From positions 143,652 through 167,651 of the forward strand of contig NZ_JQKV01000001.1 in the NCBI RefSeq assembly GCF_000746205.1: a DNA stretch of 24,000 bases, written 5' to 3'. How positions within the stretch are numbered: position 1 is the stretch's first letter; each line of letters opens with the position of its first letter. This DNA comes from Halorubrum sp. BV1. Its GTDB lineage: Archaea > Halobacteriota > Halobacteria > Halobacteriales > Haloferacaceae. Under the pieces are notes generated by a model, which was not told where the DNA came from, made no database searches, and saw only the letters and a list, made by a program, of their open reading frames with translations. The translations under genes were made by a program, and so were the position numbers. This document shows positions 5,592 through 24,000 of this stretch, piece after piece.

Positions 5592-6731
5592 CTACAACTC
5601 GCCGAGTTTGCGGAGGAGCTGCCCGCGGTACTCTTCGTCCGCGTTCACGCCTTTGATCTCTAAGACGTTCCGCTCCAGTTTGTCGAGCGCGACGTGGAAC
5701 GCGTGTTCCGCGCCGTATCCCTCACCGGAGCCGCCGACCTGGCCCTCGTTCGTCCGAAGCCGGATCTGACACTGGATGAGCGGCGTGCCACGGAGCTTCT
5801 CCTTGTGCGCGTGAAAGCGGACGTGCGCGTGGATGACCTGCATCGCGGCGTACTTGTCTGCGACCTGCTCGATGGACTCGACGATGTGTTCTCGGTTGGT
5901 CGTATCGAGCAACTCGACGTTGGTGATCTGCACGTCCATCGAGTCCTGCTCGGTGAACGTGAGCGCGCGCAGCACGTCGGTTTTGGTCACCATTCCGGCG
6001 ACGGTGTCGGCGTCGTCCGGCGTGACGACCAGCCCGGAGATGTCGTTGTCGAACATCCGCTCGACGACAGCCTGTGCGGTCTCGTCAGCGGTCGCCGTGA
6101 CGACTGGGCTCGACATGATGTCGTAGACGGGGATGTCGAGCATCCGGTCGATGTCGCCGGCGCGGTCGCCGCTGCCCTGTCGCTCCTGATCGCGGACGAC
6201 GAACTCGACGATGTCGTTCGTGGTGACGACGCCCGCGAGCCGTCCGTCCTCGTCGAGCGTCGGCAGCCGCGAGATCCCGTTCTCGCGGAGGCGGTTGATC
6301 GCGCTCCCGACGCTGTCTTTCTCGCTGATCCCGATCACGTCCTCGGTCGCGATCTGGGCGACGGTGATCGCATCGAGGCTGTCGATGACCGCCTCCAGGA
6401 TCTGGTCGACCGTGATGATCCCGTACAGCTTCTCGCCCTCGTACACGGGTGCGATCTTCACGTCTCCCTCGACGAGGAGTCGCGCCGTCTCGCGGACGTC
6501 CTCGTGTCGATCGACAGACGGGGCTGGCTTCATCACGGCCGACACCTTCGTGTCGTCTTCCATCCGCGAGCGCATGAGCTGTTTCTCGCCGACGACGCCC
6601 GCGTACTCGCCGTCTTCTACGACGACGATCCCTTTCGGATTCTCCCGCTCAAAGATAGAACGGACCTTTGCGAGCCGCTCATCGACCTCCACTTCGACGT
6701 ATTCCGGCGCTGCAATATCAACGATATCCAT
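5592..6731 (-). CDS. Protein with four CBS domains (two Bateman pairs) and a C-terminal HPF/RaiA-like (ribosome-associated inhibitor / S30AE fold) domain
   Basis: I prefer the internal ATG at 6731 (MDIVDIAAPEYVEVEVDERL...) over the track start at 7019. The upstream extension overlaps the divergent HAD gene and reads as non-acidic junk. CBS-like repeats include VVVEDGEYAGVVGEKQL, IAPVYEGEKLYGIITVDQIL, RLPTLDEDGRLAGVVTTNDIV and GLVVTPDDADTVAGMVTKTDVL. The tail MDVQITNVELLDTTNREHIVESIEQVADKY...QCQIRLRTNEGQVGGSGEGYGAEHAFHVALDKLERNVLEIKG matches the HPF pattern (...ITG.NVE.T..LR.YV..K...L..Y......V.V.L......AID...DKLERQL) that I recall from bacterial HPF/YfiA. Confidence 0.8.
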   Translation of the reverse strand: MDIVDIAAPEYVEVEVDERLAKVRSIFERENPKGIVVVEDGEYAGVVGEKQLMRSRMEDDTKVSAVMKPAPSVDRHEDVRETARLLVEGDVKIAPVYEGEKLYGIITVDQILEAVIDSLDAITVAQIATEDVIGISEKDSVGSAINRLRENGISRLPTLDEDGRLAGVVTTNDIVEFVVRDQERQGSGDRAGDIDRMLDIPVYDIMSSPVVTATADETAQAVVERMFDNDISGLVVTPDDADTVAGMVTKTDVLRALTFTEQDSMDVQITNVELLDTTNREHIVESIEQVADKYAAMQVIHAHVRFHAHKEKLRGTPLIQCQIRLRTNEGQVGGSGEGYGAEHAFHVALDKLERNVLEIKGVNADEEYRGQLLRKLGEL

Positions 6732-6893
6732 GGTCCAGTTCGAAAGTTCGACCGGCCGGGTATTGAAAGTGCGGGAGTCGTCGCGTCGAGTGAGATACTC
6801 CCTCACGGGGCGATATTTCACCTCAGGCGGCCTCGAGCTGCGCGTACTCTCAATAGTGAAAGGTTTTTGCCCGTTACCGACGGACACGAGCGT

Positions 6894-7577
6894 GTGTACG
6901 ACGCCGTCGTCCTCGACAAGGACGGAGTGCTCGTCGGACGAACCTCGTTCGACACGCTCCGGGAGGCCGCGTGGGACGCGTTCGTAAGCGCCGGCGTCGA
7001 AGACCCGGATCTGGCTCACGTCGACGACGTCGCCGTTGGCGTCGACCCCGGGACGCTATCGACGATCTGTGAGCGGTACGGCCTCGATCCGACCGAATTC
7101 TGGCGTATCCGCGACGAGGTCGCGGCGGCGGCACAGATCGCCGCCGCGCGCAGCGGACAGAAGACCCCATACGAGGACGTCGACGCGCTTCGCTACCTCG
7201 ACGCCTCGCTCGGCGTCGTCTCCTCGAACCAGCAGGAGACGGTTGACGCCGTTCTCGACCACTTCGGACTGTCCGGCCGGTTCGAGGTCGCCTACGGTCG
7301 GGAACCGTCGATAGCGAGCCTCTCACGAAAGAAGCCGTCGCCGTACTATCTCGAACGTGCGCTCGACGCGCTCGACGCCGAGACGGCGATATTCGTCGGC
7401 GACAACGAGTCCGACATCCGCGCGGCCGACAACGCCGGCATCGACTCCGCGTTCATCCGTCGACCTCACCGGCGATCGACGGAACTCACCTGTCACCCGA
7501 CCTACGAGATCGACGACCTCCACGACCTCGTGAGCATCTGCGGACGGGCACCCGTGGATAACAGCCGCGAGGCGTAG
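6894..7577 (+). CDS. HAD-superfamily hydrolase (subfamily IA, phosphatase-like)
   Basis: The GTG at 6894 gives (M)YDAVVLDKDGVL, placing motif I (DxDG) three residues from the N-terminus. Motif II is LGVVSSN, motif III is KKPSPYYL, and motif IV is FVGDNESDIRAADNAGI. The 627-aa track ORF (5694..7577) is an artefactual 5' extension antisense to the CBS gene. A TTG at 6867 is an alternative start. Confidence 0.75.
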   Translation: MYDAVVLDKDGVLVGRTSFDTLREAAWDAFVSAGVEDPDLAHVDDVAVGVDPGTLSTICERYGLDPTEFWRIRDEVAAAAQIAAARSGQKTPYEDVDALRYLDASLGVVSSNQQETVDAVLDHFGLSGRFEVAYGREPSIASLSRKKPSPYYLERALDALDAETAIFVGDNESDIRAADNAGIDSAFIRRPHRRSTELTCHPTYEIDDLHDLVSICGRAPVDNSREA

Positions 7578-8923: not shown

Positions 8924-8950
8924 AACAAAAGTTGAGACCGCGGATCTCAA
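8924..8950 (-). terminator. Candidate terminator of the long minus-strand operon (hairpin plus T-tract)
   Basis: Read on the minus strand: ttgaga-tccgcgg-tctcaa (6-bp stem, 7-nt loop), followed directly by cttttgtt. It lies about 108 nt downstream of the last ORF stop at 9058. Confidence 0.3.
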
Positions 8951-9057
8951 TGCATAGGTAGTCAGTCCAATCCTGTCTCTTTTGGCAGGTGATTTATGAA
9001 TGAGATTCTGTAGAGTACTTGGAGAACGAAACGCCCGAGAACTCAAGCGGAATATAC

Positions 9058-9739
9058 TCACTCCCAGGGTTTGGAGCGGGGCTTTGACGTGACAGATTCG
9101 TCGTCAAGCGCGCGAGTGGGGGCTATAGAGGCGTCCGAGAGTAACTCACAGGTCACGGAATGCCGCGTCAAAATCATCGTCTTCGAACCCGGTAGAGTCA
9201 ACATCTGCCTGTTCTTGGAGTCATCAATTTGTTCCACGAGTCGCCGGTATTCGTCATTCGGCTGGAGGTCTGACTCCGCTATCTCATTTTCAAGGACCGC
9301 CTTCGTCTGAAGCAACCGGTAGAGGTCGTCTACCGTTTCATCATACCGTTCCCGGGTTTGGCATTCGCTCGACCACGTCACGGATCTCGGCTTCCCCAAC
9401 CGGTTTGGTGATGTAGTCATCGAATCCCACCCCGATAACGTCGAAATCAGGTGTCACCGCCGAGACCATCACGACACGCGTTCCCATCTCTTGCTCACGG
9501 ATGCGCTTGAGCACCTCGTCACCAGACAGTCCAGGCATCCGCCGGTCCAAGAGGACAACATCGATCGTAGAATCAAAGATCTCGAGTGCCTCCTCTTCAT
9601 TATATGCGACCTCGACAAGATACTCATCCCGGAGCTATACAGCCATCAGATCGGCGAGGCCCTGATTATCGTCGACAATCAATACCCCTCCTGCGTTGCT
9701 CGATGTATCGTCACTTATCGGATTCCTCCGGGTCTGCAT
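9058..9739 (-). pseudogene. REC-HalX response regulator, disrupted by an in-frame TAG and a 1-nt frameshift
   Basis: My translation from the ATG at 9739 reads MQTRRNPISDDTSSNAGGVLIVDDNQGLADLMAV*LRDEYLVEVAYNEEEALEIFDSTIDVVLLDRRMPGLSGDEVLKRIREQEMGTRVVMVSAVTPDFDVIGVGFDDYITKPVGEAEIRDVVERM. The receiver signature residues are present (DD, LLD, S/T, K-P). The frame then stops at 9341. The HalX-like sequence (RERYDETVDDLYRLLQTKAVLENEIAESDLQPNDEYRRLVEQIDD) continues in another frame, the track ORF 9058..9420. The TAG is at 9635-9637. Confidence 0.75.
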
Positions 9740-12700
9740 CCTGCGTGTCGTCGGCTGTCCTCGACGAGGAATGAGGTTCGTCAGTGAACTCGACACCTGT
9801 GAATTCGAATCGCGCCCCGCCCGTACTACCGGAAGAGACAGTTACTTGCCAACCGTGAGCATCGGCGATCTGTTTCACGATATTCAGACCGAGACCCGTG
9901 CCCTGATCAGTCGTGTATCCCGGCTCGAAAAGCTGACCTCGGTCGCCTTCGGGGATGCCAGGGCCGTCGTCTTCGACGTAGAAGCCACGGTCTGAGTCAA
10001 GGTCTCCGATGGTGACAGCCACGTCCTCACCACCATGTTCGACCGCGTTTCGGAAGAGATTTTCTAGCAACTGTTTGAGCCGGGATCGGTCTGCCTGAAG
10101 TACGCTATCAGTCGTTGTGTGGATCTCGCTGTCGGTTGTTTCCACGTTCTGCCAACACTCATCGCTGAGAGCTTCGAGAGTGACTGCTTCGAAGTCCCCG
10201 ATGGCTTGTCCCGTCCGAAAGAGCGTTAATAAATCCTCGATGAGTGTCTCCATCCGCTCGTGCGCATGCTCGATCGCGTCGAGATGCTCGCTCTCACACT
10301 CTTTTTGAGCCTGCTGTCGCTCCCCTCGTGCAACGTTCAGCGGGTTCTGAAGGTCGTGTGACACGATGCTGGCAAAGTCGAACCGCTCGTTCCGGTGTTT
10401 GAGTTCCCGCACGTACTGTTTGCGTTCGGAAATATCGGGGCTGATTCCGATCATTCCGATAATCTCCCCATCCTCGTCACGGTACGGGTATTTGTTATCG
10501 AGGAAGACGTGCTCCTCGCCATCGATGAACCGGACCGTCTCCGCGGACATCTCCTCGCCAGACTCCATAACCTGCTTATCATCGGCACGAATGTCGGCTG
10601 CGCTTTCAGCGTCGAACAGGTCCTCGTCGTGTTTGCCGATAATCTCTTCGGGCGTATAACCGAACAGCTCAGCGCCGCTTTCATTAATGAACTGATAGTA
10701 GCCCTCTCTATCTTTGATATAGATCGCTTCAGACGTGTTCTGCACGATCGCCTCTAGTTGCCGGGTTTTCTCTGCTAATTTTTCTTCACGTTCGATGCGT
10801 TCGGAGATGTCCCGGAAGATGCCGTACGTGACTGGACCGTCCGGAAGCGGGACCGTCTCGACACTGATCTCGACTGGGACGTGGTCCCCGTTGTCGGTAA
10901 CTATATCGATGGGTGATCCATCGGGAAGTCGTCGCCTGGTTCCCCCCGTTTGAACGTGTTCCTCGAAGAGCTGCTGATAGAGGTCAGCCTGCTCGGAGGG
11001 ATGGAGCTCTGATTGATGCGAGCCGGTGATTTTGTCACTCGCCATCCCGAGCAAGGTTTCGGCAGCGTCGTTGACCTCGATAACTTCGCCCGTCTCGCCA
11101 TCGGCAACGAACACTGGATCCGGAGCCGCCCCAAGCAACGTTTCATACCGCTCTTTCAACTTTGAGAGTTCCTGTTCGCGCTCTTTGTGCTCGGAGATAT
11201 CCCGACAGACAATAAGATGCAAACCTGGGACGATATCATGTGTCACCGTCCACTCGACGATTCGTTCTGAACCATCCGGCCGAACCAACGTTGCAGTCTC
11301 GCGTTGCAGTCCGGAATCTCGATCATCTCTCGGAATATCACGGAACTCAAAACAATCAGTGGTAAATTCGTCGAACGATCGACCTACTACCTTTTCTTTT
11401 GGAAGACCAAAGAGGTTGGCGGTACTTTCATTCGCCCGGAGGGTCTGCCCCTCGTCGTCGACAATCATCAGCGTATCGGCTGTTTCCTCGAAGATACGCT
11501 GGAAGAGGTCTCCAGACTGCTGTCTGATCGGCACTATCTCGTTGGTATCGTCGCTCTCCGTCCCCTCTATGGACTGCGGGAGCGTTATTGTGATCGTCGT
11601 ACCTTCGTCGGAAACAGACGTTTCGATGTCTCCGCCGTGGCCCGTGACGACCCAATAGACCATCCAGAGACCGAGGCCTTCGCCGTGGATCAGCGGCTCT
11701 TCAGTTCCAGTTTCGAGTACCCGATATTCCTGTTCGGGGAGCCCTGGGCCATCGTCGGATATCTCTAATGTGATCGTTCCATGGTCGACTTCAGCGGAGA
11801 CGGTCACCCTGGGGGCGTCTGGGTGCTTGCACGCGTTTTCGATCAACTCGTGGAGCGCCGCTTTGAGGTTCTGATATCCCGATATTGGCACCTCATCTGG
11901 TCCAGTGACTTCTATCGAGGCTGCAGGATACTCGCCTTCGATATCCGCACTCACCTGACGGATCAACGTCATTACGTCGAACGATTGGCGTTCGACATTT
12001 TCCCCCAGGAAGACATCGAGTTCCGTCGCTTTCTCGGCGAGGGATACAATTCTGTCCATGGCGGAGATGACCTCACTTCCATCGATCGAATCGTCGTCGA
12101 GTTGGTCGACTATCATGTCCGTGTAGCCACGGATAACGTTGAACTCGTTGCGAATATTGTGTCGGAAGACTCTCAGCAGGACGGTGTTGAGCTGCTGTTG
12201 ACGGACGAGATTCTGTTCTCGTTTCTTTTGGTCGGTAATGTCGATGACGCCACCTCTGTAGCCCTTGATGGCTCCCTCGTCATCGGTGAGGGCGGTCACG
12301 CTGTCGGACACCCATCGAATCTCTCCATCAGCAGTTCGGACGCGATATTCGAACTGATCGAGTTCGCCGACCGACGTGAGGGTTTCAGAATACGTCGCAT
12401 ACGTGTCTGGATCCACAAATACCTCGTCTTCGATACTGTCTACCGCCGCGCACAGCTCCTCGCCACTCTCGTAGCCGAGCAGATCTGCAAACGCCGGATT
12501 CGCCATGGCATACTCGTCGAGTGTGGCAGTCGTCGTGTAGATGCCTTCGATTGCATTTTCAAAGAGCTGCTGATACTGTTCTTCCAGTTCCGAGGCGAGT
12601 TCCAGCGTGCCCCGGGTGGTTTTTTCCAGTTCTTCTTGCAGGGCTTCCTTTTCCTCAGTCCGTTGTTCCAATTGCATGGCTTCGATTTCGCGGCCGAGGA

Positions 12701-13181
12701 GGCGTGCAACCAGTTCGATGAACAGCTTCTCCTCGGTAGTAAATCCCTCCTCCCGAGGCGTTCGTTGGATAAAACAGACAGTCCCGTAGACCTCTCCACG
12801 CACGAACATCGTGGTTCCGAGATAACAATCGATGTCGTGTTCCTTGTAGGCCGGATCGTTTTGCCATCCCTGCTCTGGGGCATTCGAAATCGCAACGGGC
12901 GAGGGCTCCTGAACCGTATGGCGACAGTAGGTTTTGTCGCGGTCGAGCCTGGTTCCTTCCGGGAGCAGATCGGAATCATTGCCGACGCTGACAAGTATCT
13001 CGTCAGTTGTACTATCGTTGGGATGGCGCTGGATGTGGCCATTTGTGACTCCGAGATACTCTCTGCCTATTGCGAGGACGTGCCGTTGTTTCTCCTCTAA
13101 CGCCAATTCGTCATCATCCATCACCTCGTAGATCCGCTGGGTTGGTGGCGTTTTGTCCGCCGAGCCATTCTTAGTAGTCAT
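9711..13181 (-). CDS. Multidomain sensor histidine kinase with two complete transmitter modules. Order: GAF-like, coiled coil, PAS, HisKA/HATPase_c, three PAS, HisKA/HATPase_c.
   Basis: 1156 aa. GAF-like: TYCRHTV...CYLGTTMFVRGEVYGTVCFIQRTPRE. First H-box: LRVFRHNIRNEFNVIRGY (His341, codon 12159-12161), with N-box HELIENACKH, G1 DDGPGLP and G2 GEGLGLWMV. Three PAS-like segments follow (residues ~555-925). Second H-box: FASIVSHDLQNPLNVA (His942, codon 10356-10358), with ENLFRNAVEHGG, DDGPGIP and GTGLGLNIV. Confidence 0.9.
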   Translation of the reverse strand: MTTKNGSADKTPPTQRIYEVMDDDELALEEKQRHVLAIGREYLGVTNGHIQRHPNDSTTDEILVSVGNDSDLLPEGTRLDRDKTYCRHTVQEPSPVAISNAPEQGWQNDPAYKEHDIDCYLGTTMFVRGEVYGTVCFIQRTPREEGFTTEEKLFIELVARLLGREIEAMQLEQRTEEKEALQEELEKTTRGTLELASELEEQYQQLFENAIEGIYTTTATLDEYAMANPAFADLLGYESGEELCAAVDSIEDEVFVDPDTYATYSETLTSVGELDQFEYRVRTADGEIRWVSDSVTALTDDEGAIKGYRGGVIDITDQKKREQNLVRQQQLNTVLLRVFRHNIRNEFNVIRGYTDMIVDQLDDDSIDGSEVISAMDRIVSLAEKATELDVFLGENVERQSFDVMTLIRQVSADIEGEYPAASIEVTGPDEVPISGYQNLKAALHELIENACKHPDAPRVTVSAEVDHGTITLEISDDGPGLPEQEYRVLETGTEEPLIHGEGLGLWMVYWVVTGHGGDIETSVSDEGTTITITLPQSIEGTESDDTNEIVPIRQQSGDLFQRIFEETADTLMIVDDEGQTLRANESTANLFGLPKEKVVGRSFDEFTTDCFEFRDIPRDDRDSGLQRETATLVRPDGSERIVEWTVTHDIVPGLHLIVCRDISEHKEREQELSKLKERYETLLGAAPDPVFVADGETGEVIEVNDAAETLLGMASDKITGSHQSELHPSEQADLYQQLFEEHVQTGGTRRRLPDGSPIDIVTDNGDHVPVEISVETVPLPDGPVTYGIFRDISERIEREEKLAEKTRQLEAIVQNTSEAIYIKDREGYYQFINESGAELFGYTPEEIIGKHDEDLFDAESAADIRADDKQVMESGEEMSAETVRFIDGEEHVFLDNKYPYRDEDGEIIGMIGISPDISERKQYVRELKHRNERFDFASIVSHDLQNPLNVARGERQQAQKECESEHLDAIEHAHERMETLIEDLLTLFRTGQAIGDFEAVTLEALSDECWQNVETTDSEIHTTTDSVLQADRSRLKQLLENLFRNAVEHGGEDVAVTIGDLDSDRGFYVEDDGPGIPEGDRGQLFEPGYTTDQGTGLGLNIVKQIADAHGWQVTVSSGSTGGARFEFTGVEFTDEPHSSSRTADDTQDADPEESDK
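12222..12629 (-). repeat. Coiled-coil plus PAS cassette, copy A (paralogous to 14409..14816)
   Basis: LEKTTRGTLELASELEEQYQQLFENAIEGIYTTTATLDEYAMANPAFADLLGYESGEELCAAVDSIEDEVFVDPDTYATYSETLTSVGELDQFEYRVRTADGEIRWVSDSVTALTDDEGAIKGYRGGVIDITDQKK aligns without gaps to the kinase-2 segment. Most positions are identical. Confidence 0.85.
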
Positions 13182-13208
13182 CGGTTCAGGTCTCCCAGTA
13201 TGGTTTCG

Positions 13209-14969
13209 TCACCCATTATCCTCAGTGATAAGCAGGGGTGTGCCCCCACTGCCCGTGATTTCGAACCGTGCTCCACCGTCAGCTCCGTCCGTCACGTCAA
13301 TCTCCCACTGATGGGCTTCGACGATCCGCTTGACGATCGCCAGTCCGAATCCTGTTCCGCTCGAATTCGTTGTATATCCCTGCTCAAAGATGTCGTTCCG
13401 CGCCTCCGGCGGGATACCCGGTCCAGTGTCTTCGACGTAAAAGCCATCGTCCAACCGACCGACCGTGACGGTAACCGACTCACCACTGTGTTCGATGGCG
13501 TTCCGGAACAGATTTTCAAAGACTTCGACCAGCCGGCTTCGATCCGCTTCGAGGTGCCCGAGTGATTCAGTCCGGAGGGTGGCATTGGCTCTTGAAATTG
13601 AGTTCCACGCGTCGCGAGCGGTCTCTTCGAGGCGAATTGATTCGGTTTCCCCGACTGCCTTCCCTTGCCGTGAGAGTTCGAGAACATCCTCGATGATGGC
13701 TTCGATCCTATCAAGGGCTGTTTTTGCCGGGTCGAGATTGGTACTGTCACATTCCGCCTCTGCGAGGGCCACGCGTCCGTTTGCCACGTTCAGTGGATTC
13801 CGTATGTCATGAGAGATAATACTCGCAAACTCATCAAGACGGTCGCGTTCCCGGCGGAGCGTCGTTTCAGCCCGAATTTGGTAGAGGGCAGACGTCACAT
13901 GGTTGGCAAGCAAGTTGAGGAGTTCCTCATCATGGTCGTCGAATGCGTCTGGTTCGGTCGCAAACACCTGAATCAGACCTACGTCGTCAAGTGAGACGCC
14001 TAACAGTGCACGAAGATCCTTGCGTGCGTCCTCCCTCAGTCCCGGGGTTGCAGTTTTGGGGGAGTTGGATGAGTTATCTACGTTTACATCTAGTGGTGCC
14101 GTTCCTCGCATCTCGGTTACGTCATCCACGCGAAGAACCTCGTCAGATCGATAGGTTCGCCCGGCAAATCCAGTGTCAACTGGGACCGGATTGTACTGCT
14201 CCAGCGATTCATCACGCGAACTAGCGGTCGGGACAAGGTGATCGACTTCCGCAACGGCAAGATACACACTGGCACCGGGAAAGAGGGCGGCAGCACCGTC
14301 GACTGCACGCTGGTAAATTGCTGCTTCTGTGTCGGCATCAGCGATGTCAGTTGCAATCTCGTGAAGCTGAGTGACCTTGGACATGTGCTCCCGCAGTCGG
14401 TCTATCGCCTCTTTCCGCTCCGTGATGTCGATGACTCCACCTCTGAACCCGCTCATATCCTCCTGACTATCGGAGAGGGCGGTCACGTTATCCGAGACCC
14501 ACCGTATCTCGCCATCAACTGTTTTAACTCGATATTCGAACCGCTCAATCTCGCCCATAGACGATAGTAGCTCTGAACACGTTTCGTATCGGTCGGCGTC
14601 CACAAAGACGTCCTCCGCAATACTATCCACTGCCTCACAGAGTTTTTCACCGCTCTCGTAGCCGAGCAGGTCTGCAAACGCGGGGTTCGCCATGACATAC
14701 TCGTCAAGTGTGTCGGTGGTCGTGTAGATACCCTCTGCCGCCGTCTCGAAGAGCTGTTGGTACTGCTCTTCAAGCTCTGAGGCGAGTTGCAGCGTGCCTT
14801 GCGTCGTTTTCTCCAGTTCCGTGTGCAAGACCTCGTTTTCCTCGCGTAATCGTTCGTTTTCTGTCTGGAGTTCCCGCACTCGGTGGTTGATCGACTCCAG
14901 TGTGGGTTCTACCTCTGGGTCGGCACATGCTTTCGCGTTCTCCAAGAGTTGCTCGATCTGGTCAGTCAT
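13209..14969 (-). CDS. Sensor histidine kinase (coiled coil, PAS, GAF, HisKA, HATPase_c)
   Basis: The preferred start is the ATG at 14969 (MTDQIEQLLENAK...). It overlaps the upstream gene's end by 8 nt (ATGACTGA). The track start at 15002 is an alternative. The PAS is as in the repeat above. GAF-like region: IYQRAVDGAAALFPGASVYLAV...LLGVSLDDVGLIQVFATEPDAFDDHDEELLNLLANHV. H-box: EFASIISHDIRNPLNVA. HATPase_c: ENLFRNAIEHSG, EDTGPGIP, GTGFGLAIV. Confidence 0.9.
   Translation of the reverse strand: MTDQIEQLLENAKACADPEVEPTLESINHRVRELQTENERLREENEVLHTELEKTTQGTLQLASELEEQYQQLFETAAEGIYTTTDTLDEYVMANPAFADLLGYESGEKLCEAVDSIAEDVFVDADRYETCSELLSSMGEIERFEYRVKTVDGEIRWVSDNVTALSDSQEDMSGFRGGVIDITERKEAIDRLREHMSKVTQLHEIATDIADADTEAAIYQRAVDGAAALFPGASVYLAVAEVDHLVPTASSRDESLEQYNPVPVDTGFAGRTYRSDEVLRVDDVTEMRGTAPLDVNVDNSSNSPKTATPGLREDARKDLRALLGVSLDDVGLIQVFATEPDAFDDHDEELLNLLANHVTSALYQIRAETTLRRERDRLDEFASIISHDIRNPLNVANGRVALAEAECDSTNLDPAKTALDRIEAIIEDVLELSRQGKAVGETESIRLEETARDAWNSISRANATLRTESLGHLEADRSRLVEVFENLFRNAIEHSGESVTVTVGRLDDGFYVEDTGPGIPPEARNDIFEQGYTTNSSGTGFGLAIVKRIVEAHQWEIDVTDGADGGARFEITGSGGTPLLITEDNG
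14409..14816 (-). repeat. Coiled-coil plus PAS cassette, copy B (paralogous to 12222..12629)
   Basis: LEKTTQGTLQLASELEEQYQQLFETAAEGIYTTTDTLDEYVMANPAFADLLGYESGEKLCEAVDSIAEDVFVDADRYETCSELLSSMGEIERFEYRVKTVDGEIRWVSDNVTALSDSQEDMSGFRGGVIDITERKE. The similarity is also visible in the DNA (compare 12590-12640 with 14780-14830). Confidence 0.85.
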
Positions 14970-15999
14970 TGGTATCGGTGACGACGAGTGCAGTAGCGTC
15001 ATCCTCCGATTTGCCGTACTGTTTGAGCAACCGGTTCGCTATCGCGCCAGCTGGGTCGTCCCCTCCATCTCGTATGTCGTCCCAGTCCCATCTCGTCGAA
15101 ATACCATCAGAATACAACACCATCGTGAATCCTGGATCCCACTCTCGGGTGACGACAGATGCTCCTGGATTATTGCCCCCCACGACGCCCCGTCGGACGA
15201 TCAGCCCCGTCCATTCCGGGCCAGACAACTTCACATTGATATTTCCTATGTTGGCAAAGGTGAGCGTATGCTCCCTCCAGTCGAACTTCGCGAGTGCCAT
15301 CACGACGCCGCGTGTCCCCTTGCACGCGCGGTCAGCTCCGCGAAAGATTGACGCAAGCGGCCGCTCGACGTGTGACTCGACGTAGCTACGAGCTGTGGTC
15401 GCTGCTTTGTGCGCCCGGGATCCATGCCCGAGGCCGTCGATAACGCCCACCAGCGTCTTGTCATTCCACGTCTTGGCGATGAAGGCGTCACCGTTGACCT
15501 GCTCGGTGGAGATGGCCCGTGATGCAGCCCCAATTGAGGCGGGATTCGGCTTCGTTGTCTCATATTCCGGGATTAGCCACCGATCTGCGACCAGTCGCGT
15601 TCCAGCCTCGGGGCCTTCCGGGGTCGTGACCTCGAGTTCGTCCATCGTTTGATTCACGATGGAGAGGCCGAGCCCGAGCGAGCCAGCGGTCGAAGATCCC
15701 GTCGTGAATGCCGCTTCAATATCTTGGATCCCGGGGCCGGAATCTTCTGATTCAAGCCGAATTCCCGTCTGTGAATCTGCCGCAATTGTTTTGATCGAAA
15801 GTGTTCCGCCCCCGGCGTGTTTATCTAGGTTCGTCGCCAGTTCCGTCGCAACGAGTCCGAGTTCAGAGCTGATATCGTCCTCAAACCCTATCTCGGCTGC
15901 CGTCTGTTCTACCGTATGTTGTGCCCTGGTGGCATCAGCTGACTCGGAAATATCGATGTCGGTTTCAGTAGTAACAACGAGGTCGTCCGGTCTGCTCAT
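14962..15999 (-). CDS. ATP-binding SpoIIE/PP2C-family protein phosphatase: an N-terminal RsbT/RsbW-like HATPase domain fused to an RsbX-like PP2C domain
   Basis: True start is the ATG at 15999 (MSRPDDLVVTTETDIDISES...). The track ORF's 110-aa upstream extension to 16329 overlaps the rsbT-like gene out of frame. N-terminal domain: VATELATNLDKHAGGGTL, SEDSGPGI, TGSSTAGSLGLGLSIV. C-terminal domain: NGDAFIAKTWNDKTLVGVIDGLGHGSRAH...ANIGNINV...VLYSDGIS, the SpoIIE/RsbX-type motifs. Confidence 0.85.
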   Translation of the reverse strand: MSRPDDLVVTTETDIDISESADATRAQHTVEQTAAEIGFEDDISSELGLVATELATNLDKHAGGGTLSIKTIAADSQTGIRLESEDSGPGIQDIEAAFTTGSSTAGSLGLGLSIVNQTMDELEVTTPEGPEAGTRLVADRWLIPEYETTKPNPASIGAASRAISTEQVNGDAFIAKTWNDKTLVGVIDGLGHGSRAHKAATTARSYVESHVERPLASIFRGADRACKGTRGVVMALAKFDWREHTLTFANIGNINVKLSGPEWTGLIVRRGVVGGNNPGASVVTREWDPGFTMVLYSDGISTRWDWDDIRDGGDDPAGAIANRLLKQYGKSEDDATALVVTDTND

Positions 16000-16018
16000 C
16001 GTGATCGGCTCCGTCCTG

Positions 16019-16423
16019 TCATGAGTGCCACTTTGTGATCGTGATTGTCGTGCCCTCTCCTTGTTCCGTGTCGATCTCCATGTCGTCCATGAGCGTCTGT
16101 GTTCCGGACAGCCCACGGCCCAACCCATCCGACGTCGAAAATTCCCCCTCAAGCGCTGCGTCGGGATCGTCGATGCCTGGCCCCTGATCCTCGAAGATGA
16201 CCGTGAGACCGGTTCGATCGTCGTCGGTGATATGCTTCCATTCCATCGTTCCCTCACCGGCGTAAAGGTGGATGTTCCGGGCGAGTTCCGAGACAGCCGT
16301 GACGATCCGCGTGATATCCGTGGTGTCAAACCCGACTTGCTCAGCGGCGTCTCGGGCTTGTTGACGGGTCTGGAGCACGTCAGTTTCGGACTGGATCTCT
16401 ACTCGACCGGAGCCCTCGCTCAT
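16019..16423 (-). CDS. rsbT: RsbT-like anti-sigma-regulatory-factor-type serine/threonine protein kinase (HATPase_c_2)
   Basis: MSEGSGRVEIQSETDVLQTRQQARDAAEQVGFDTTDITRIVTAVSELARNIHLYAGEGTMEW...IFEDQGPGIDDPDAALEGEFSTSDGLGRGLSGTQTLMDDMEIDTEQGEGTTITITKW. This closely follows my memory of B. subtilis RsbT (ISELARNIYLYAG, DQGPGI, GFSTSGGLGAGLPG, LMDEF, GEGT.I...KW). Its ATG at 16423 overlaps the upstream stop as ATGA. Confidence 0.85.
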   Translation of the reverse strand: MSEGSGRVEIQSETDVLQTRQQARDAAEQVGFDTTDITRIVTAVSELARNIHLYAGEGTMEWKHITDDDRTGLTVIFEDQGPGIDDPDAALEGEFSTSDGLGRGLSGTQTLMDDMEIDTEQGEGTTITITKWHS

Positions 16424-16788
16424 GAGGGATCCCAACTTACTCCCAACATTTCGAGTGCATGATCGGTCGACCGGGCAGTCTCAACTGCATCCAACCGGTA
16501 TCCGAGTTCTGCAGCGGTCACAGCGACTTCCGGGCGGATCCCGGCAATCACTGTCGTCCCGCCCATGAGTTCGATCATCTGAGCCGTCTCCGAGATATGC
16601 CGGGCGAAAAACGAATCCATCAGTTGCACGTTGGACACGTCGAGGATGACGCCCTCAGGCTGGCTGGTTTCCATTTCTGCCAAGATCGCCTCTTGTAACT
16701 CGTCGACCACCGGGTCAGTCGGGTTGTTGGGAAACGTCCCCAACAGGATATCGTAGATTCGAACGACATTCGCGCTACCAGCCGACAT
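16420..16788 (-). CDS. rsbS: RsbS-like single-STAS-domain stressosome scaffold protein
   Basis: 122 aa: VVRIYDILLGTFPNNPTDPVVDELQEAILAEMETSQPEGVILDVSNVQLMDSFFARHISETAQMIELMGGTTVIAGIRPEVAVTAAELG. It parallels B. subtilis RsbS as I recall it (VIDLTSVDMIDSFIAK...[26 protein letters not shown]). The phospho-acceptor-equivalent Ser is at residue 59 (codon 16612-16614). Confidence 0.85.
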   Translation of the reverse strand: MSAGSANVVRIYDILLGTFPNNPTDPVVDELQEAILAEMETSQPEGVILDVSNVQLMDSFFARHISETAQMIELMGGTTVIAGIRPEVAVTAAELGYRLDAVETARSTDHALEMLGVSWDPS

Positions 16789-17567
16789 CAGTCGAACGAT
16801 ACCCCCGCAATATCGAGCGCGGTTTTGAGGCCTTCCTGAAGCGACGATTGTGTTTCCACGTCGAATCCAATTCCGAGCTGCACGAGTGTCTGGGAGATCT
16901 CTGGATTGAGTCCCGTGATGATTGTCTGACCGCCCATCAGTTTGACGGCGTGGATCGTATCGATAAGATGTTGGGCGGTCTGGGTGTCAACCGCCTCCGC
17001 ACCGGTAATATCGATGATCGCGACAGTGGCTTCCGTTTCTGAAATCCGTTCCAGGAGCTTCTCAGTGAAATCTTGGGCCTGTGCCGAGTCGAGTTTCCCG
17101 ATGATCGTCGAGAGCAAAATCCCGTCCCAGACCTCGACGATTGGCACTGATCGCTTGGCGAGTTCATCGGCCAACGACTCTTGAATCTCTCGTTGCCGAT
17201 TGCGCTCGGTGATGTTCCGACCGATACTGGCGATCGCTTTGAGACTTTCATCCTCGTCTTCAACGGGAGTCCACTGGAACTCGTACGGGAGCCGCTCTCC
17301 CGTCTTCGTTTCGAGAACAGTCCCAAGCGTGACGGCCGTCCGATCATTGGTGATAGTCTTTATAGCCGTGCGCACGTCCCCGCGCTCTCCCTCGGGGACG
17401 AGATCGGCGGGGTTGAGGTCCCCAATCTCGTTGTTGTCGTATCCTGTGACGCTTGTGAATCGAGCGTTCCACTCCACGTACTCGCCGCCGGGAGTGAATA
17501 CGTAGAACAGGTCATCAAGCGAATTGACAGCGTCTGCGAGTAACCCAGGATCCGAAGAATTGATCAT
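16788..17567 (-). CDS. rsbR: RsbR-like stressosome sensor protein (N-terminal PAS domain plus C-terminal STAS domain)
   Basis: The ATG at 17567 gives MINSSDPGLLADAVNSLDDLFYVFTPGGEYVEWNARFTSVTGY... (PAS). The STAS half is SVPIVEVWDGILLSTIIGKLDSAQAQDFTEKLLERISETEATVAIIDITGAEAVDTQTAQHLIDTIHAVKLMGGQTIITGLNPEISQTLVQLGIGF. That is RsbR-like, including the VDT and SQT threonines. Its stop overlaps the rsbS-like ATG by 1 nt (TGATG at 16786-16790). Confidence 0.85.
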   Translation of the reverse strand: MINSSDPGLLADAVNSLDDLFYVFTPGGEYVEWNARFTSVTGYDNNEIGDLNPADLVPEGERGDVRTAIKTITNDRTAVTLGTVLETKTGERLPYEFQWTPVEDEDESLKAIASIGRNITERNRQREIQESLADELAKRSVPIVEVWDGILLSTIIGKLDSAQAQDFTEKLLERISETEATVAIIDITGAEAVDTQTAQHLIDTIHAVKLMGGQTIITGLNPEISQTLVQLGIGFDVETQSSLQEGLKTALDIAGVSFD

Positions 17568-17670
17568 GGATACCAATTTATCCCCCTGGTTGATATAACC
17601 TCACGCTACTTATTTGGTATTAATTTAATCCATCACTAAATACATAACCTTCCGTTGAGAGCGATTATCT
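17568..17670. promoter_or_regulatory. Divergent AT-rich promoter region between the rsbR-like operon and the Bat-type regulator gene
   Basis: 103 bp. On the minus strand, TTATATCA (complement of 17591-17598) lies ~25-30 nt upstream of the ATG at 17567. On the plus strand, taaataca (about 17637-17644) lies ~27-30 nt upstream of the ATG at 17671. There is also an inverted repeat: ataccaa (17570-17576) and ttggtat (17614-17620). Confidence 0.45.
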
Positions 17671-19308
17671 ATGGCCGATACTGATCCCGGGGATAGGACA
17701 GAGCACAAATCCCTGTATAAAACTGCGGTAGAGCAGTCACCCGATGGGATATTTGCCTTGACGAACGATTTGGAACTGGCGTTAGTGAATAGACGGATTG
17801 AATCATTAGCCGGTGTTGAACGAGAGGAGTTGGTCGGGAGCCACGCGTCGGTTTTCCGCGAAATTGGGCTCGTAGATGGAGCCAATTACGACCGGGCAAT
17901 TGCCGCATGTAGAACGGTACTGGATGGTGACGCTGATTCGGAGCAATTTGAAATTCAACTCACGCCACAATCCGAACCGATCACCGCTGAGTATCGGGTT
18001 GAACGAGTGTCCCGCGAGGAGGAAAACGCGCTCTTGATTGGAGTGCTCCGGGACATCACCCCCCGGATCGAGCAACAAAAACAGATCAAACGCCAACGAA
18101 ACGAGCTCAAAACGGTTAGTCAGATCCAGTCATTACTCCACAATATAATGAAATCACTCCCGTCAAGCACGACGAGAGCGGAAATTAATCAAGTTGTGTG
18201 TAATCAGCTCATTCAATCAAGCTTCTATGATGCTGCATGGATGGGATACAAAGGGCCTCAAGAAGAAGGAGTCAGAGGCATCTATACCGCAGGGGTGGAG
18301 CCTGGTCTCCAAGAGTTCATCACGACTCGTGAGATGGGCCGGGACGGAGCGTCAATTCTGAGCGAGGCGTTCGATACTGAACACATCCAAGTGATCAGTA
18401 GTCCGGCGACGGATCCGAGACTTCCCGATCAATTTCGAGATCAGCTTGTCCGCTATGGATATGAATCAGCGATTCTCGTCCCGCTCACAATCGATCATAT
18501 GTCGTTTGGAGTATTAATGGCCGCAACCCATCGAAAGAATGCGTTCATCAGTCGGGAACGGATGGCGTTCGAAGCGTTAGGAGGTGTCGTTGAATTTGCG
18601 GTGAATGCCGTCGAGAACGTCCAATTACTGCAGGGGGCGAAAATGGTCGAACTCAGATTCCAGATACAGACGGGTGCGATCGCTGCAGACATCTCTGATA
18701 CGTTCGATTGTGAGTGCTATCTTAATGGCATCTCACCCGCCCCTAACGACAACCTACGATGTTTTGTCTCCGTTGAGGATGCACCCACGGATGAGGTAGC
18801 TGTCTTTGCGGAACAACAAGCGGCGGTTCGAAGCGTCGAGGTGATCGACGAGTGGGAGTCGGGTGGGACGTTCGAGATCGTCTTGGGAACGTCCCCGTTG
18901 CAACCGCTCATTGACTCCGGGGTTTACATCGAGGGAGCTTCAGCGTCAGACGGAACCGCACACATATCAGTTCGTATCGGTGCAGATAGAGATCCGGTTG
19001 AGATCCTCGACAGGGTAGAATCGGTCTATCCGGAAATCGAACTCGTGAGCAAACAATTGGTAGAGGATACACGTCACCCCGTCTTTGAACTCAGTGGATG
19101 GGTAGGCGAACATCTCACGAGCAAACAACGTCAGGCGTTGGAGGAGGCGTACTTTCGGGGCTATTTCGAGTGGCCCCGCGAGAACACTGCAGAGGAGATC
19201 GCTGAAGCCCTAGGCGTCTCGTCCGCTACGTTTCACGCCCATCATCGCAAGGCGACTCAGAAACTCCTCTCAGCGGTGTTTGAAAAGAGCACAGAGCGGG
19301 AGATGTAG
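17671..19308 (+). CDS. Bat-type (bacterio-opsin-activator-like) transcription regulator: PAS, GAF, BAT domain, HTH_10
   Basis: 545 aa. PAS: YKTAVEQSPDGIFALTNDLELALVNRRIESLAGVEREELVGSH...IGVLRDITPR. GAF-like: VCNQLIQSSFYDAAWMGY...ESAILVPLTIDHMSFGVLMAATHRKNAF. C-terminal HTH_10 signature: LTSKQRQALEEAYFRGYFEWPRENTAEEIAEALGVSSATFHAHHRKATQKLL. Confidence 0.85.
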   Translation: MADTDPGDRTEHKSLYKTAVEQSPDGIFALTNDLELALVNRRIESLAGVEREELVGSHASVFREIGLVDGANYDRAIAACRTVLDGDADSEQFEIQLTPQSEPITAEYRVERVSREEENALLIGVLRDITPRIEQQKQIKRQRNELKTVSQIQSLLHNIMKSLPSSTTRAEINQVVCNQLIQSSFYDAAWMGYKGPQEEGVRGIYTAGVEPGLQEFITTREMGRDGASILSEAFDTEHIQVISSPATDPRLPDQFRDQLVRYGYESAILVPLTIDHMSFGVLMAATHRKNAFISRERMAFEALGGVVEFAVNAVENVQLLQGAKMVELRFQIQTGAIAADISDTFDCECYLNGISPAPNDNLRCFVSVEDAPTDEVAVFAEQQAAVRSVEVIDEWESGGTFEIVLGTSPLQPLIDSGVYIEGASASDGTAHISVRIGADRDPVEILDRVESVYPEIELVSKQLVEDTRHPVFELSGWVGEHLTSKQRQALEEAYFRGYFEWPRENTAEEIAEALGVSSATFHAHHRKATQKLLSAVFEKSTEREM

Positions 19309-19532: not shown

Positions 19533-21104
19533 TTGTACGATCGGAGTTCACTCGCTGGCCTCGAAGAAGACATCCGAACCGTTGCGGCCACCTGGTTTGA
19601 CCACGAGGCCCACGACTCTGTCACCGAATTCGTCGCTCACTACCCGTTGACGTATGTCGAATTTCGCCCCGACGACCGGTATTCGAGAGCAACGCGATAC
19701 GAGATGGCGCAGCTGCTCCGCGCGTTCCTGCTCAAAGAAATTCACGGCTGGACCCACGAGACGGCACTCGCCACGTACCTCACCCAACGCCCAAAACTCC
19801 GTGAGCAACTGTGTCTGGAGATGGTCCCAGACCAATCGACGCTCTGGCGCAGCTGGCACGAGCGGTTCACCACTGACCTCCGGAAGTCAGTCGAGACGGT
19901 GGCTCGAATGATCCTCATCAAAGCTCAGGATGCGGGTGTCGCGGTTCCGCGTGAACCGGCACGAAAGCTCCAGCATCACGATGGCAAGTCTGGTGAGTCA
20001 GAATCAGACGATCAAACCACGTTGGAGCAGGCAGCGAAGCTCACCGACCACGTCAGCCGTATCGTCTTCCCGGCGTTTTCGCTGGATCGTGGGGACGGCT
20101 GTGAGATACATGAGAACGCCTACTGGGGATTACAGACGTATCTCGGACTTCGCGAGCAGCTGGCTGCGAACGAAGGAGCTCGCAGTTTCGTCTACGAATC
20201 GACTCGGGATCGGACACCGCTGGGGCACGCCCATCGCGACCACATCCGCGACCTCTCTATCGAGCAGATTCGCGAGATGTACCGACAGGCGATCCGGCAC
20301 CTCATCGGCGAGGTCGCAGAGACAGAGCAGTTCTTCCAGGCGGGTATTGTCGCCATCGACATCACTGAGGCCGATCCCTTCACCGGCAATAGAACGGGCT
20401 ACGAGGACGAGATCATCGGGACGAAAGAACAGACCGACGAGTACGCGTACCAGTGGGCGACAGTCCAGCTGGTCGGCAACGCCGTCCCGCTCGTCCTTGA
20501 TGCCCGCCCGGTACGGAAAGGCGAGAGTCGGAAGGACATCGTTGAGGACTTGCTGGATTCGGCTGAAGAGCTCGTCCACGTCGATAACGTGCTGATGGAC
20601 CGGGAGTTCGATAGCCAGCACGTCCTAGAGATGATCAGCCAGCGCGGGCTTTCCTACGTCGTTCCGAAGCGGATGCAGACCAGCGAAAAAGCTCAGGCAA
20701 AGCGGTTGCTCCAGCGCGATCAAGACCGATACGAGACCGACCGTAAACTCCATCTGGGGAAGAACGAGTGGCACGAGACGACGCTGATCTACCGCCGGAA
20801 AGAAGACTCTGAGCACGACGACCATCGACAGTACTCGGTGTTCATGTCAAACCGAGGTGGTAGCTTCCTCACTGAGTATAGGTATCGGTGGGAGATTGAG
20901 AGCGGCTATAGGTCGATCAAGCGGTTCATGGCCGCGACGACGTCTACGGATTTCGGACTGCGATTCTTCTACTTCGCGTTCGCGTGCCTCTTATACTCAA
21001 TCTGGCGAGCGATCGATCTACTCGTGCAGGCCGAGTTGACTGGAGAATACGAACGGTCACCGATGCTGACTGCAGATAATACACTCACGCTGTTGAAGAA
21101 ATAG
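19533..21104 (+). CDS. IS4-superfamily (haloarchaeal ISH-type) DDE transposase
   Basis: 523 aa. Candidate DDE residues lie in GIVAIDITE, VLMDREFDS and YRYRWEIESGYRSIKRF. The last fits the IS4 Y-(2)-R-(3)-E-(6)-K signature exactly. The track start is a TTG, so the true start is uncertain. Confidence 0.85.
   Translation: MYDRSSLAGLEEDIRTVAATWFDHEAHDSVTEFVAHYPLTYVEFRPDDRYSRATRYEMAQLLRAFLLKEIHGWTHETALATYLTQRPKLREQLCLEMVPDQSTLWRSWHERFTTDLRKSVETVARMILIKAQDAGVAVPREPARKLQHHDGKSGESESDDQTTLEQAAKLTDHVSRIVFPAFSLDRGDGCEIHENAYWGLQTYLGLREQLAANEGARSFVYESTRDRTPLGHAHRDHIRDLSIEQIREMYRQAIRHLIGEVAETEQFFQAGIVAIDITEADPFTGNRTGYEDEIIGTKEQTDEYAYQWATVQLVGNAVPLVLDARPVRKGESRKDIVEDLLDSAEELVHVDNVLMDREFDSQHVLEMISQRGLSYVVPKRMQTSEKAQAKRLLQRDQDRYETDRKLHLGKNEWHETTLIYRRKEDSEHDDHRQYSVFMSNRGGSFLTEYRYRWEIESGYRSIKRFMAATTSTDFGLRFFYFAFACLLYSIWRAIDLLVQAELTGEYERSPMLTADNTLTLLKK
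19533..21104 (+). mobile_element. Insertion sequence. Only the transposase ORF is delimited; the terminal inverted repeats are not resolved.
   Basis: An intact transposase ORF is flanked by non-coding AT-richer sequence (19309-19532 and 21105-21410). I could not identify convincing terminal IRs or target-site duplications by eye. Confidence 0.6.
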
Positions 21105-21410: not shown

Positions 21411-22445
21411 TCACTCGAGTAGCGAATACATATTTCTCTCGTACGTCTCGCGAACTTGGTTCCCCCAATCGTGCGTGTACGTGTCGATTATGTCGTCGGC
21501 GACGTCACCGCGGAGGTACTTGACCACTCCCCGGTCGCCGGTTCGGTCCCGGAGGTGCGTGGTGAAGAAGTGTCGAAAGTAGTGTGGAGTGACGTTTTCA
21601 GTGGCCCCGCCGCCGGTTCGATACCACCCGGCATCTCGGGCGTATCGTTCGACGATGTGCCGCACCGCCTGGGGGTCGAGTCGCGACCCCCATCCCTCTG
21701 CGGTGCCGACAAAGAGCGGATCGGCCGACGAGGGGCAGTCCGGTCGGATCGCGAGCCACGCTTTGAGAACTCGCGCCAACTCGTCGTCAACGGGGATCAC
21801 GGTACTGCGCTTACGCTTGTTCGATGCCGAGCGGACCTCGTCGTTCAACGTTTCGCCAACGGTCGCATCAGGCGTCACGTACACCGAATTCGGCCGACCG
21901 GCGAGTACCGGTCTGGTTCCGAGATCGTACGCCTCGTTCAGCTCGTCGTCGTCGATCGCGACGTCGCGGAGATCGAGGTTACAGCACTCACCGACCCGCA
22001 TCCCGGTCTTCAAGAGCGTCACGACGAGAGCGCGGTGAAGCGGATGGGTGATGCCGGAGACGAACGTTCGCATCGCGGGAATCGAAATGTCCCGGCGGGC
22101 CGGGTCCGTGTCGATCGTTTCGTCCATCTCTTCGACGACAAGCGTCATCGGATTGCCGTCGAACGCGCCGACCTCGGTCATATACCCGTAGAATCGGTGC
22201 AGATACGCCGCGTACGTCGCTACCGTGCTGTCGGCGAGTTCACCTCGGAGCGAGTGAATGAACGCCATACAGTCGCGGTGCGTGGCCGTCTCGGGGGTGG
22301 ACGTCTCGTCGAGAAACGCCTCGAACTGCCGGAGCACGCGCTCGTACGACTCGCGCGTCCTCGACGTCTTCCCGTGATAGGTCAGATCTTCGATGAAATA
22401 CTCAACCGGATCGTCGATATCGGCGGGGGCACGCGTGCTACTCAT
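21411..22445 (-). CDS. Tyrosine recombinase / phage-type integrase (XerC/D-like)
   Basis: 344 aa. N-terminal SAM-like core-binding region: YFIEDLTYHGKTSRTRESYERVLRQFEAFL. Catalytic region: LLKTGMRVGECCNLDLRDV (Arg I), TPHYFRHFFTTHL (HxxR), GVVKYLRGDVADDIIDTYTH (candidate nucleophile Tyr). Confidence 0.9.
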   Translation of the reverse strand: MSSTRAPADIDDPVEYFIEDLTYHGKTSRTRESYERVLRQFEAFLDETSTPETATHRDCMAFIHSLRGELADSTVATYAAYLHRFYGYMTEVGAFDGNPMTLVVEEMDETIDTDPARRDISIPAMRTFVSGITHPLHRALVVTLLKTGMRVGECCNLDLRDVAIDDDELNEAYDLGTRPVLAGRPNSVYVTPDATVGETLNDEVRSASNKRKRSTVIPVDDELARVLKAWLAIRPDCPSSADPLFVGTAEGWGSRLDPQAVRHIVERYARDAGWYRTGGGATENVTPHYFRHFFTTHLRDRTGDRGVVKYLRGDVADDIIDTYTHDWGNQVRETYERNMYSLLE

Positions 22446-22815: not shown

Positions 22816-22848
22816 CTCGATGTACCGTTTTGCGGCCGGTACCTTCAA

Positions 22849-23998: not shown

Positions 23999-24000
23999 CG

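Follow-up and report, generated by a model that had tools for sequence, protein, structure and literature searches.

Gene Content and Organization of the Locus

We examined a stretch of 24,000 nucleotides (nt) from the haloarchaeon Halorubrum sp. BV1 (contig NZ_JQKV01000001.1, positions 143,652 to 167,651 of the forward strand; hereafter the window), in which the listing of open reading frames (ORFs) and Pfam searches revealed a real stressosome gene cluster with all its genes on the minus strand. In 5' to 3' order, the cluster encodes RsbR, RsbS and RsbT homologs, a fused phosphatase that we call X, two histidine kinases (HK2 and HK1) and a REC-HalX response regulator (Table 1). The sequences of RsbT and X matched Halorubrum sp. 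BV1 proteins with 100% identity. The original prediction for this DNA had placed seven minus-strand genes between positions 17567 and 9058; the strand and six intact genes were confirmed, whereas the seventh gene proved to be a pseudogene.

Junctions within the cluster, as read in the sequence, were short. RsbR and RsbS overlapped by 1 nt and RsbS and RsbT by the tetranucleotide ATGA, and 19 nt separated RsbT from X. The X stop overlapped the HK2 start by 8 nt (ATGACTGA, 14962-14969), 27 nt lay between HK2 and HK1, and the regulator ATG at 9739 was found 29 nt within the HK1 3' end; these last three junctions had been described in the same terms by the original prediction. It had also stated that genes for RsbU, RsbV, RsbW and sigma factors are missing, in agreement with the Pfam annotation of all long ORFs of the window, where none was found and the sole extra RsbW/RsbT-like domain was the N-terminal half of X. 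The AT-rich region of 103 nt upstream of rsbR displayed a TATA-like TTATAT about 31 nt 5' of the rsbR ATG and is likely a promoter region. A scan for bacterial-type promoters and terminators gave counts not above those of shuffled sequences, and terminator-like hairpins on the minus strand appeared only 3' of the REC-HalX pseudogene, which is suggestive at best for an archaeon. The cluster may be an operon, and its products may contact each other.

Table 1. Features of the BV1 stressosome cluster and its surroundings (window coordinates; aa, amino acids)
Feature	Position	Strand	Basis or remark
RsbR-like co-antagonist, N-terminal PAS sensor and C-terminal STAS	16788..17567	-	Pfam PAS_4, STAS
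RsbS-like antagonist, single STAS	16420..16788	-	Pfam STAS
RsbT-like GHKL Ser/Thr switch kinase, 134 aa	16019..16423	-	Pfam HATPase_c_2
X, RsbT-paralogue domain fused to RsbX-type PP2C	14962..15999	-	Pfam HATPase_c_2 and SpoIIE
HK2: N-terminal helix, PAS, GAF, HisKA (H387), HATPase_c	13209..14969	-	Pfam
HK2 helix copy, residues 44-72, ENEVLHTELEKTTQGTLQLASELEEQYQQ, invariant Thr = T55	14754..14840	-	Alignment, hhalign
HK1, 1156 aa: GAF, helix, PAS, core 1, three PAS, core 2	9711..13181	-	Pfam
HK1 helix copy, residues 177-205, EKEALQEELEKTTRGTLELASELEEQYQQ, internal after GAF, invariant Thr = T188	12567..12653	-	Alignment, hhalign
REC-HalX response-regulator pseudogene	9146..9739	-	Three-frame translation; DNA alignment with L093
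Divergent intergenic region rsbR/Bat-like gene, likely promoter region	17568..17670	.	103 nt, AT-rich; sequence read
Divergent PAS-GAF-BAT-HTH_10 (Bat-type) regulator	17671..19308	+	Pfam
Insertion sequence (IS)-type DDE transposase	19533..21104	+	Transposases of many haloarchaeal plasmids ~80% identical in DNA
Tyrosine integrase	21411..22445	-	In low-GC island
DUF5805 gene	22438..22848	-	In low-GC island

Stressosome Proteins and the Fused Phosphatase

The best solved-structure matches of the RsbR STAS domain were Vibrio vulnificus RsbR (7O0I, 4e-24) and Listeria RsbR (6QCM), and its candidate phosphorylation sites S161 and T195 aligned with both the Listeria and the Vibrio RsbR sites. A LOV/YtvA-type photoreceptor was considered for this protein and rejected (YtvA_fam score of 90 bits against a cutoff of 250; flavin-binding NCRFLQ cysteine motif missing). 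RsbS matched B. subtilis RsbS best among structures of the PDB (6JHK, 1.7e-15) and conserves the phosphorylated serine S59, its MDSF aligning with IDSF of the B. subtilis protein. The RsbT-like kinase presented intact N (E46, N50), G1 (D79), and G2 boxes, and many of its relatives carry the JGI name "serine/threonine-protein kinase RsbT." By these features RsbR, RsbS, RsbT, and the PP2C domain of X each fit a stressosome module.

The true ATG of X is at 15999, and the protein is composed of an RsbT-like domain (~aa 1-145) and a PP2C domain (~aa 150-345). The former was 33% identical to BV1 RsbT over 127 residues, the whole RsbT length, and is a full-length RsbT paralogue; the suggestion that RsbT may act on the HATPase domain of the phosphatase found no support, this domain being such a paralogue. 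X keeps the ATP-binding boxes and the metal-binding aspartates D171, D188, D298, and D333/334. Its PP2C domain matched MtX (3ZT9) and RsbX (3W40) among PDB sequences and, in an AlphaFold2 (AF2) model of X with a predicted local distance difference test score (pLDDT) of 83, superposed on 3ZT9 with a template modeling (TM) score of 0.90, the N domain of the model adopting the SpoIIAB/RsbW fold.

Both kinases possess the DHp histidine and CA domain expected of histidine kinases, and HK1 holds two complete kinase cores, one with H341 and a HATPase at 435-533 and the other with HisKA H942 and a HATPase at 1031-1128, separated by three PAS domains. This architecture is kept in HK1 orthologues of Halopenitus (locus L002 of the survey described below, 69% identity) and of locus L093 (82%), and is therefore not an assembly artefact. 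The helix and the PAS domain that follows it form a unit of 140 residues that was 74% identical between HK2 and HK1 (window 12500-12660 and 14400-14840), in contrast with 45% for the kinase cores; a domain may have been duplicated inside the cluster, or the two genes may have undergone conversion. A recent whole-gene duplication of HK1 was rejected as the origin of HK2 in view of the divergence of the cores and of the HK2 orthologues present in loci L090-92; those of L090 and L092 (76% identity) occupied the same position and displayed the same 8-nt overlap with X.

Gene Order in Related Loci

An alignment of X was scanned against one genome per species, which yielded 215 loci; the best 80 were analyzed, calling their genes by our own ORF models and iterated domain profiles. 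They came from many bacterial phyla, eleven haloarchaea, one Helarchaeota and one Methanotrichaceae metagenome-assembled genome (MAG), and one further archaeon. A separate T gene was found directly 5' of X in all 67 loci with enough upstream sequence, 64 of which contained an S gene and 64 an R gene. The first gene after X (+1) was a same-strand histidine kinase in 55 of 72 loci, a kinase occurred within three genes after X in 62 of 72, and the median X/kinase junction was a 4-nt overlap. Pfam domains of 69 +1 proteins included HisKA (53), HATPase_c (54) and REC (22). RsbU_N was considered as a possible receiver domain and rejected, as it had no Pfam match in these 69 proteins. Two Dehalococcoidales loci (L007/L008) carried two tandem RsbT-like genes 5' of X, that is, three RsbT-type domains per module.

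This conservation argues that the link with kinases is not a local accident, and it is comparative genomics that supports the reading of a two-component output. The original prediction had coupled the rsbRST-like genes to histidine kinases instead of a sigma cascade; the R-S-T-X-kinase order conserved across about 80 loci, with the same-strand +1 kinases counted above, supports it. Its view that this domain combination appeared undescribed in archaea needs correction: the arrangement is not specific to them, the majority of the related loci are those of bacteria, and HisKA/REC outputs of sigma-less rsbRSTX modules have been reported "even in some archaeal species" (PMC9237108). The module is one of a class of sigma-less stressosome modules that is widespread, occurs mainly in bacteria and is known in outline from Vibrio and Moorella; it is not an archaeal invention.

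A Helix Shared by the Proteins Encoded After X

The +1 proteins shared an N-terminal segment of ~45 residues (consensus LQxELxETN(R/K)GLxAL(T/S)xELExRV), hereafter the helix, whose level of conservation was similar to that of the catalytic boxes in an otherwise variable protein. A helix hidden Markov model (HMM) matched the products of +1, and occasionally +2 or +3, genes and essentially nothing else among ~1,400 neighborhood proteins, and the helix was found 3' of X in 55 of 77 loci. A word-indexed search with the helix alignment returned 19 short fragments, which were used only as seeds for an exhaustive profile search; among 1.84 billion representative proteins, the latter recovered 591 helix proteins (162 below 1e-10), nearly all of them matching at residues 1-58. 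HisKA was present in 72 of the 79 long matches scanned, and a few HD or GGDEF proteins were also seen. In reverse look-ups, three of four motif proteins came directly after PAS-STAS, STAS, HATPase_c_2, and fused phosphatase genes; one of these three was a GAF-GGDEF-HD protein, indicating that the helix travels with the module and not with the effector.

HK2 and HK1 carry a divergent form of the helix (..ELEKTT(Q/R)GTL(Q/E)LASELEEQY..), followed in each case by a PAS domain, that retains seven of the eight near-invariant positions. Direct single-sequence scores of the BV1 kinases with the helix HMM were not significant. The profile of the BV1 subclade aligned in register with the bacterial motif profile (hhalign 95%, E 3e-8), and intermediate forms occurred in other haloarchaeal loci, namely L004 and, with E values of 1e-15 to 1e-18, L003/L005/L006/L087. 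The invariant Thr/Ser is located, on our reading of the alignment, at a predicted heptad core position, and may act either as a phospho-acceptor or, structurally, as a polar residue. With a separate RsbT, an RsbT-like::PP2C fusion and the divergent helix in HK2 and HK1, the BV1 locus falls within the subclass of modules defined by fused X and helix.

Co-variation was assessed by a mirror-tree/partial Mantel test that comprised 45 loci only and ragged domain extracts. Divergence of the helix correlated with that of the X N-domain (r 0.25, 2/1000 permutations) and of RsbS (r 0.24, 16/1000), whereas values for RsbT (r 0.11) were not significant and those for its own kinase core were of r 0.10. 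Pairwise distances of RsbS, X N-domain, and PP2C intercorrelated (0.53-0.59), and those of RsbT correlated with no other module protein (r -0.05 to 0.2), perhaps as noise, RsbT being short and very conserved, or because rsbT has had a history of its own.

The REC-HalX Pseudogene

Compared with its intact orthologue in L093 (92% DNA identity), the terminal gene of the BV1 cluster presented three lesions: a nonsense change (TGG to TAG, 9637..9635) and two frameshifts of 1 nt, by insertion near 9361 and by deletion near 9221. The HalX part has thereby lost its reading frame, and the real stop lies at 9148..9146; position 9058, taken by the original prediction as the end of the cluster, is merely the end of a frameshifted ORF. 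In L093, the regulator is joined to the HK1 orthologue by a ATGAGTGA overlap; the ATG in this overlap, its called start, is ATA in BV1 (9718..9716), and the upstream in-frame ATG at 9739 is kept in both. The reconstructed BV1 protein was 76.5% identical to that of L093, 44% to that of the Halobaculum plasmid (L087), and 47% to that of L003. Intact REC-HalX genes overlapped the last kinase in L093, L087, and L090-92.

The BV1 locus lacks a cognate response regulator with an intact receiver. The proposal that the signal reaches transcription through REC-HalX cannot work here as drawn, the gene being inactivated, and it was speculative also because neither DNA binding nor any other function is documented for HalX (PMC5847659).

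Haloarchaeal Relatives and Genomic Context

In a rough neighbor-joining tree, the haloarchaeal X proteins formed one clade, whereas other archaeal copies were scattered among bacteria. Gene order varied within the haloarchaea: Halopenitus presented R-S-T-X-HK1; L093, X followed by the HK1 orthologue and the intact REC-HalX; and a Halobaculum halophilum plasmid (L087), R-S-T-X, a helix-bearing kinase, and an overlapping REC-HalX. The metagenomic loci L090-92 displayed R, S, T, X, the HK2 orthologue, a second helix-bearing kinase, a 107-aa ORF, a 768-777-aa kinase and REC-HalX, so that two helix-bearing kinases stand in tandem. The 35-kb plasmid pHSR-CO of Halanaeroarchaeum sp. HSR-CO (L086, 5839-12188) harbored R-S-T, an X reduced to PP2C, and an HK1-like gene, which shows that the module can be plasmid-borne and that X can lose the RsbT-like domain; PP2C-only X proteins occurred in Halanaeroarchaeum and Halodesulfurarchaeum relatives. 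The HK1-like gene of L086 keeps the helix although X is without the N-domain, and since the C-terminal HATPase of this kinase is encoded apart from the rest, in an ORF of 138 aa, the locus may be decaying. Ratios of nonsynonymous to synonymous substitution rates (dN/dS) between BV1 and Halopenitus ranged from 0.08 to 0.31 for R, S, T, X, and HK1, with HK1 at 0.31, indicating purifying selection on the five genes.

The cluster lies in an island of ~55% GC (window 8600-24000) that abuts DNA of 66-69% GC and also contains the transposase, the integrase, and the DUF5805 gene. When the island was compared with plasmids by megablast, the IS transposase was the only match. Neither a tRNA (tRNA scan) nor an att site was found as integration site, the right boundary of the island lying beyond the window. 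The divergent Bat-type regulator adjoined the module in BV1 only and in none of the other haloarchaeal loci examined, so that the suggested route of the signal through this gene is not sustained.

Outside the island, the high-GC flank encodes a 1209-aa secreted subtilase (Peptidase_S8; window 1906-5535) with CARDB and carboxypeptidase-regulatory-like repeats, unrelated to the cluster, which gave a weak sub-threshold PGF-CTERM match (20.7 bits) with no stretch passing alone. A minus-strand CBS-domain ORF (5592..7019) overlaps a plus-strand ORF (5694..7577) in which the HAD hydrolase occupies the C-terminal third only; the gene in the latter probably starts much later than the ORF.

Comparison with Known Systems

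The BV1 cluster shares with the stressosomes of B. subtilis and L. monocytogenes the gene order RsbR (sensor plus STAS), RsbS, RsbT, the conserved RsbS Ser59 and two RsbR phosphorylation sites, and an RsbX-type PP2C, and proteins of these bacteria are among the best solved-structure matches of BV1 R, S, and PP2C. In contrast with them, it contains no RsbU, RsbV, RsbW, or sigma factor, its sensor is a PAS domain, its outputs would be histidine kinases, and the phosphatase comes directly after rsbT and has an extra RsbT-like domain.

The rsbRSTX-D1-D2 module of V. vulnificus (Jia 2016, PMC4976288; Heinz 2022, PMC9237108) is sigma-less and has two-component proteins within a few bases of its four RSTX genes, and the downstream sensor kinase has been put forward by its authors as the target of RsbT. 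The same arrangement is found in BV1, where RSTX is immediately followed by kinase and REC genes and no sigma factor is present. The Vibrio system differs by its globin-coupled RsbR, single-domain RsbX, and an output linked to cyclic di-GMP (c-di-GMP), and the D1-like protein of a Vibrio-type locus in V. aquimaris is devoid of the N-terminal helix motif. Outputs published for sigma-less rsbRSTX modules include c-di-GMP, PP2C and HisKA/REC, and their occurrence in archaea is mentioned in passing (PMC9237108).

Control of GGDEF enzymes and kinases by RsbT through RsbU_N and a coiled-coil linker has also been described (Ho & Bradshaw 2025, PMC12143880). The Moorella thermoacetica MtR-MtS-MtT-MtX-MtG module (Quin 2012) and the proteobacterial RsbU_N kinases of stressosome operons resemble the organization proposed here, RsbT controlling a non-phosphatase effector through an N-terminal receiver and a coiled-coil linker; MtX is moreover the closest solved structure to the BV1 PP2C. 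The receiver of these systems is a four-helix bundle and MtX is single-domain, whereas here there is one long helix with an ETN(R/K)G signature and a fused X. Bacterial T-X-kinase-RR clusters, such as that of plasmid pBN1 of Paraburkholderia aromaticivorans, show an identical gene order and fused architecture (anti-sigma regulatory factor, fused phosphatase, sensor histidine kinase, and response regulator), known by annotation only; BV1 X is ~33% identical to its "ATP-binding SpoIIE family protein phosphatase" (NCBI name), and we found no functional study of a pBN1-type fused phosphatase. With respect to the census of haloarchaeal regulators (Galperin 2018, PMC5847659), the terminal BV1 regulator is a standard REC-HalX, but a pseudogene, and the divergent neighbor has the PAS-GAF-BAT-HTH_10 architecture of Bat-type regulators, not conserved beside the module. 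Neither that census nor archaeal signaling reviews mention STAS or stressosome partners.

The BV1 locus thus belongs to a type of system already described; its subclass differs from the studied examples by the fused X, the helix in place of RsbU_N, and the haloarchaeal REC-HalX. No description of the helix motif was found in the literature, including a full-text search for motif strings, a 2005 comparative paper (Pane-Farre) being outside the coverage. The fused-X/helix subclass and its haloarchaeal REC-HalX ending are apparently new.

Proposed Mechanism and Alternatives

Taken together, these data point to a stressosome-type partner-switching module that probably has one or more histidine kinases as output, coupled to it through the helix, and whose history, under the same probable explanation, would be one of inheritance within one clade of haloarchaea with a bacterial-type origin. 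The early steps of this mechanism are drawn from the Bacillus, Listeria, and Vibrio paradigm, and the coupling to kinases from synteny, motif specificity, modularity, and co-variation. The STAS domains of RsbR and RsbS would sequester RsbT; upon a signal at the RsbR PAS domain, RsbT would phosphorylate RsbS S59 and RsbR S161/T195 and would then be freed, X removing the phosphates and resetting the complex. An RsbT-type GHKL domain, either free RsbT or the X N-domain, would then engage the kinase helix, and its binding, or phosphorylation of the invariant Thr (T55 in HK2, T188 in HK1), would alter the coiled-coil input to PAS/DHp and, in turn, autokinase activity. In relatives, the phosphoryl group would be transferred to the REC-HalX encoded at the end of the cluster; in BV1, either the kinases use another receiver or the pathway may be truncated. 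We advance more tentatively, as a possibility that falls somewhat short of probable, that the helix is an unrecognized receiver allowing RsbT-type GHKL proteins to switch histidine kinases, and occasionally GGDEF/HD enzymes, without RsbU_N.

Several observations weigh against this explanation. The +1 kinases of Halonotius are without the helix and Saliphagus loci are without a +1 kinase, whereas the motif-bearing kinase of L084 has no R-S-T-X nearby. An interaction between Vibrio RsbT and D1 was not detected by its authors (PMC9237108), although D1 is of the type without helix. With a REC-HalX pseudogene and a location on a mobile island, the pathway of BV1 may have ceased to function. Finally, the mirror-tree signal, modest as it is, favors the X N-domain over RsbT as the partner of the helix. 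An unlikely alternative takes up this last point: X, and not free RsbT, would be the direct partner of the kinase, its RsbT-like domain docking on the helix and tethering PP2C (or providing a kinase/phosphatase pair acting on the invariant Thr), and the stressosome would act on X rather than on the kinase. The coupling of X and the +1 gene in translation, predicted from the stop/start overlap of 4 nt in most loci and 8 nt in BV1, would fit this arrangement, as would the ATP-binding boxes kept in the X N-domain. Against it, L086, where this was checked among the haloarchaea with PP2C-only X, keeps a helix-bearing kinase, which points away from the X N-domain as the partner; a test on so few loci and ragged extracts, in which RsbT correlates with nothing, suggests noise; and no RsbX-type phosphatase is known to bind an effector.

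Mere co-location would require no coupling at all, the kinases being independent PAS/GAF sensors that share an operon and the helix an ancestral N-terminus of the kinase family. Each kinase has indeed its own sensor domains, and the solitary kinase of L084 and the Vibrio result would be expected under such a scheme. We nevertheless consider it very doubtful, as the helix is conserved like the catalytic boxes amid an otherwise variable protein, stays with the module on a GGDEF-HD effector or when moved behind a GAF domain, and follows the X N-domain and RsbS in its divergence more closely than the core of the kinase that bears it, and as stop/start overlaps with X are nearly universal. It is also distinctly unlikely that the BV1 locus is a decaying passenger of a mobile island with no current signaling role. 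The three lesions of the REC-HalX pseudogene, the low-GC island with its transposase and integrase, the patchy haloarchaeal distribution, and the plasmid location in relatives would agree with decay; in contrast, the six intact ORFs (7.9 kb in total), the low dN/dS values with respect to Halopenitus, and the conservation of every catalytic residue speak for a maintained function, and many haloarchaeal REC-HalX regulators could substitute for the one lost (PMC5847659).

Biological Significance

To our knowledge, only the stressosomes that control sigmaB are well understood. If the helix is indeed a receiver for RsbT-type GHKL domains, partner switching on Ser/Thr would be hard-wired to a His-Asp phosphorelay in a widespread class of bacterial and archaeal modules, and a first upstream input would be assigned to haloarchaeal REC-HalX regulators. 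The helix offers a concrete candidate interface between RsbT and two-component outputs without RsbU_N, across phyla and effector types. Haloarchaea appear to have inherited and kept a bacterial-type device that several of their lineages end with REC-HalX, and the BV1 copy is an ordinary member of the class, situated on a mobile low-GC island and with its regulator lost. HalX being a very common haloarchaeal output domain, the intact relatives, such as those of the Halobaculum halophilum plasmid and of the L093 type, may provide an entry to HalX biology.

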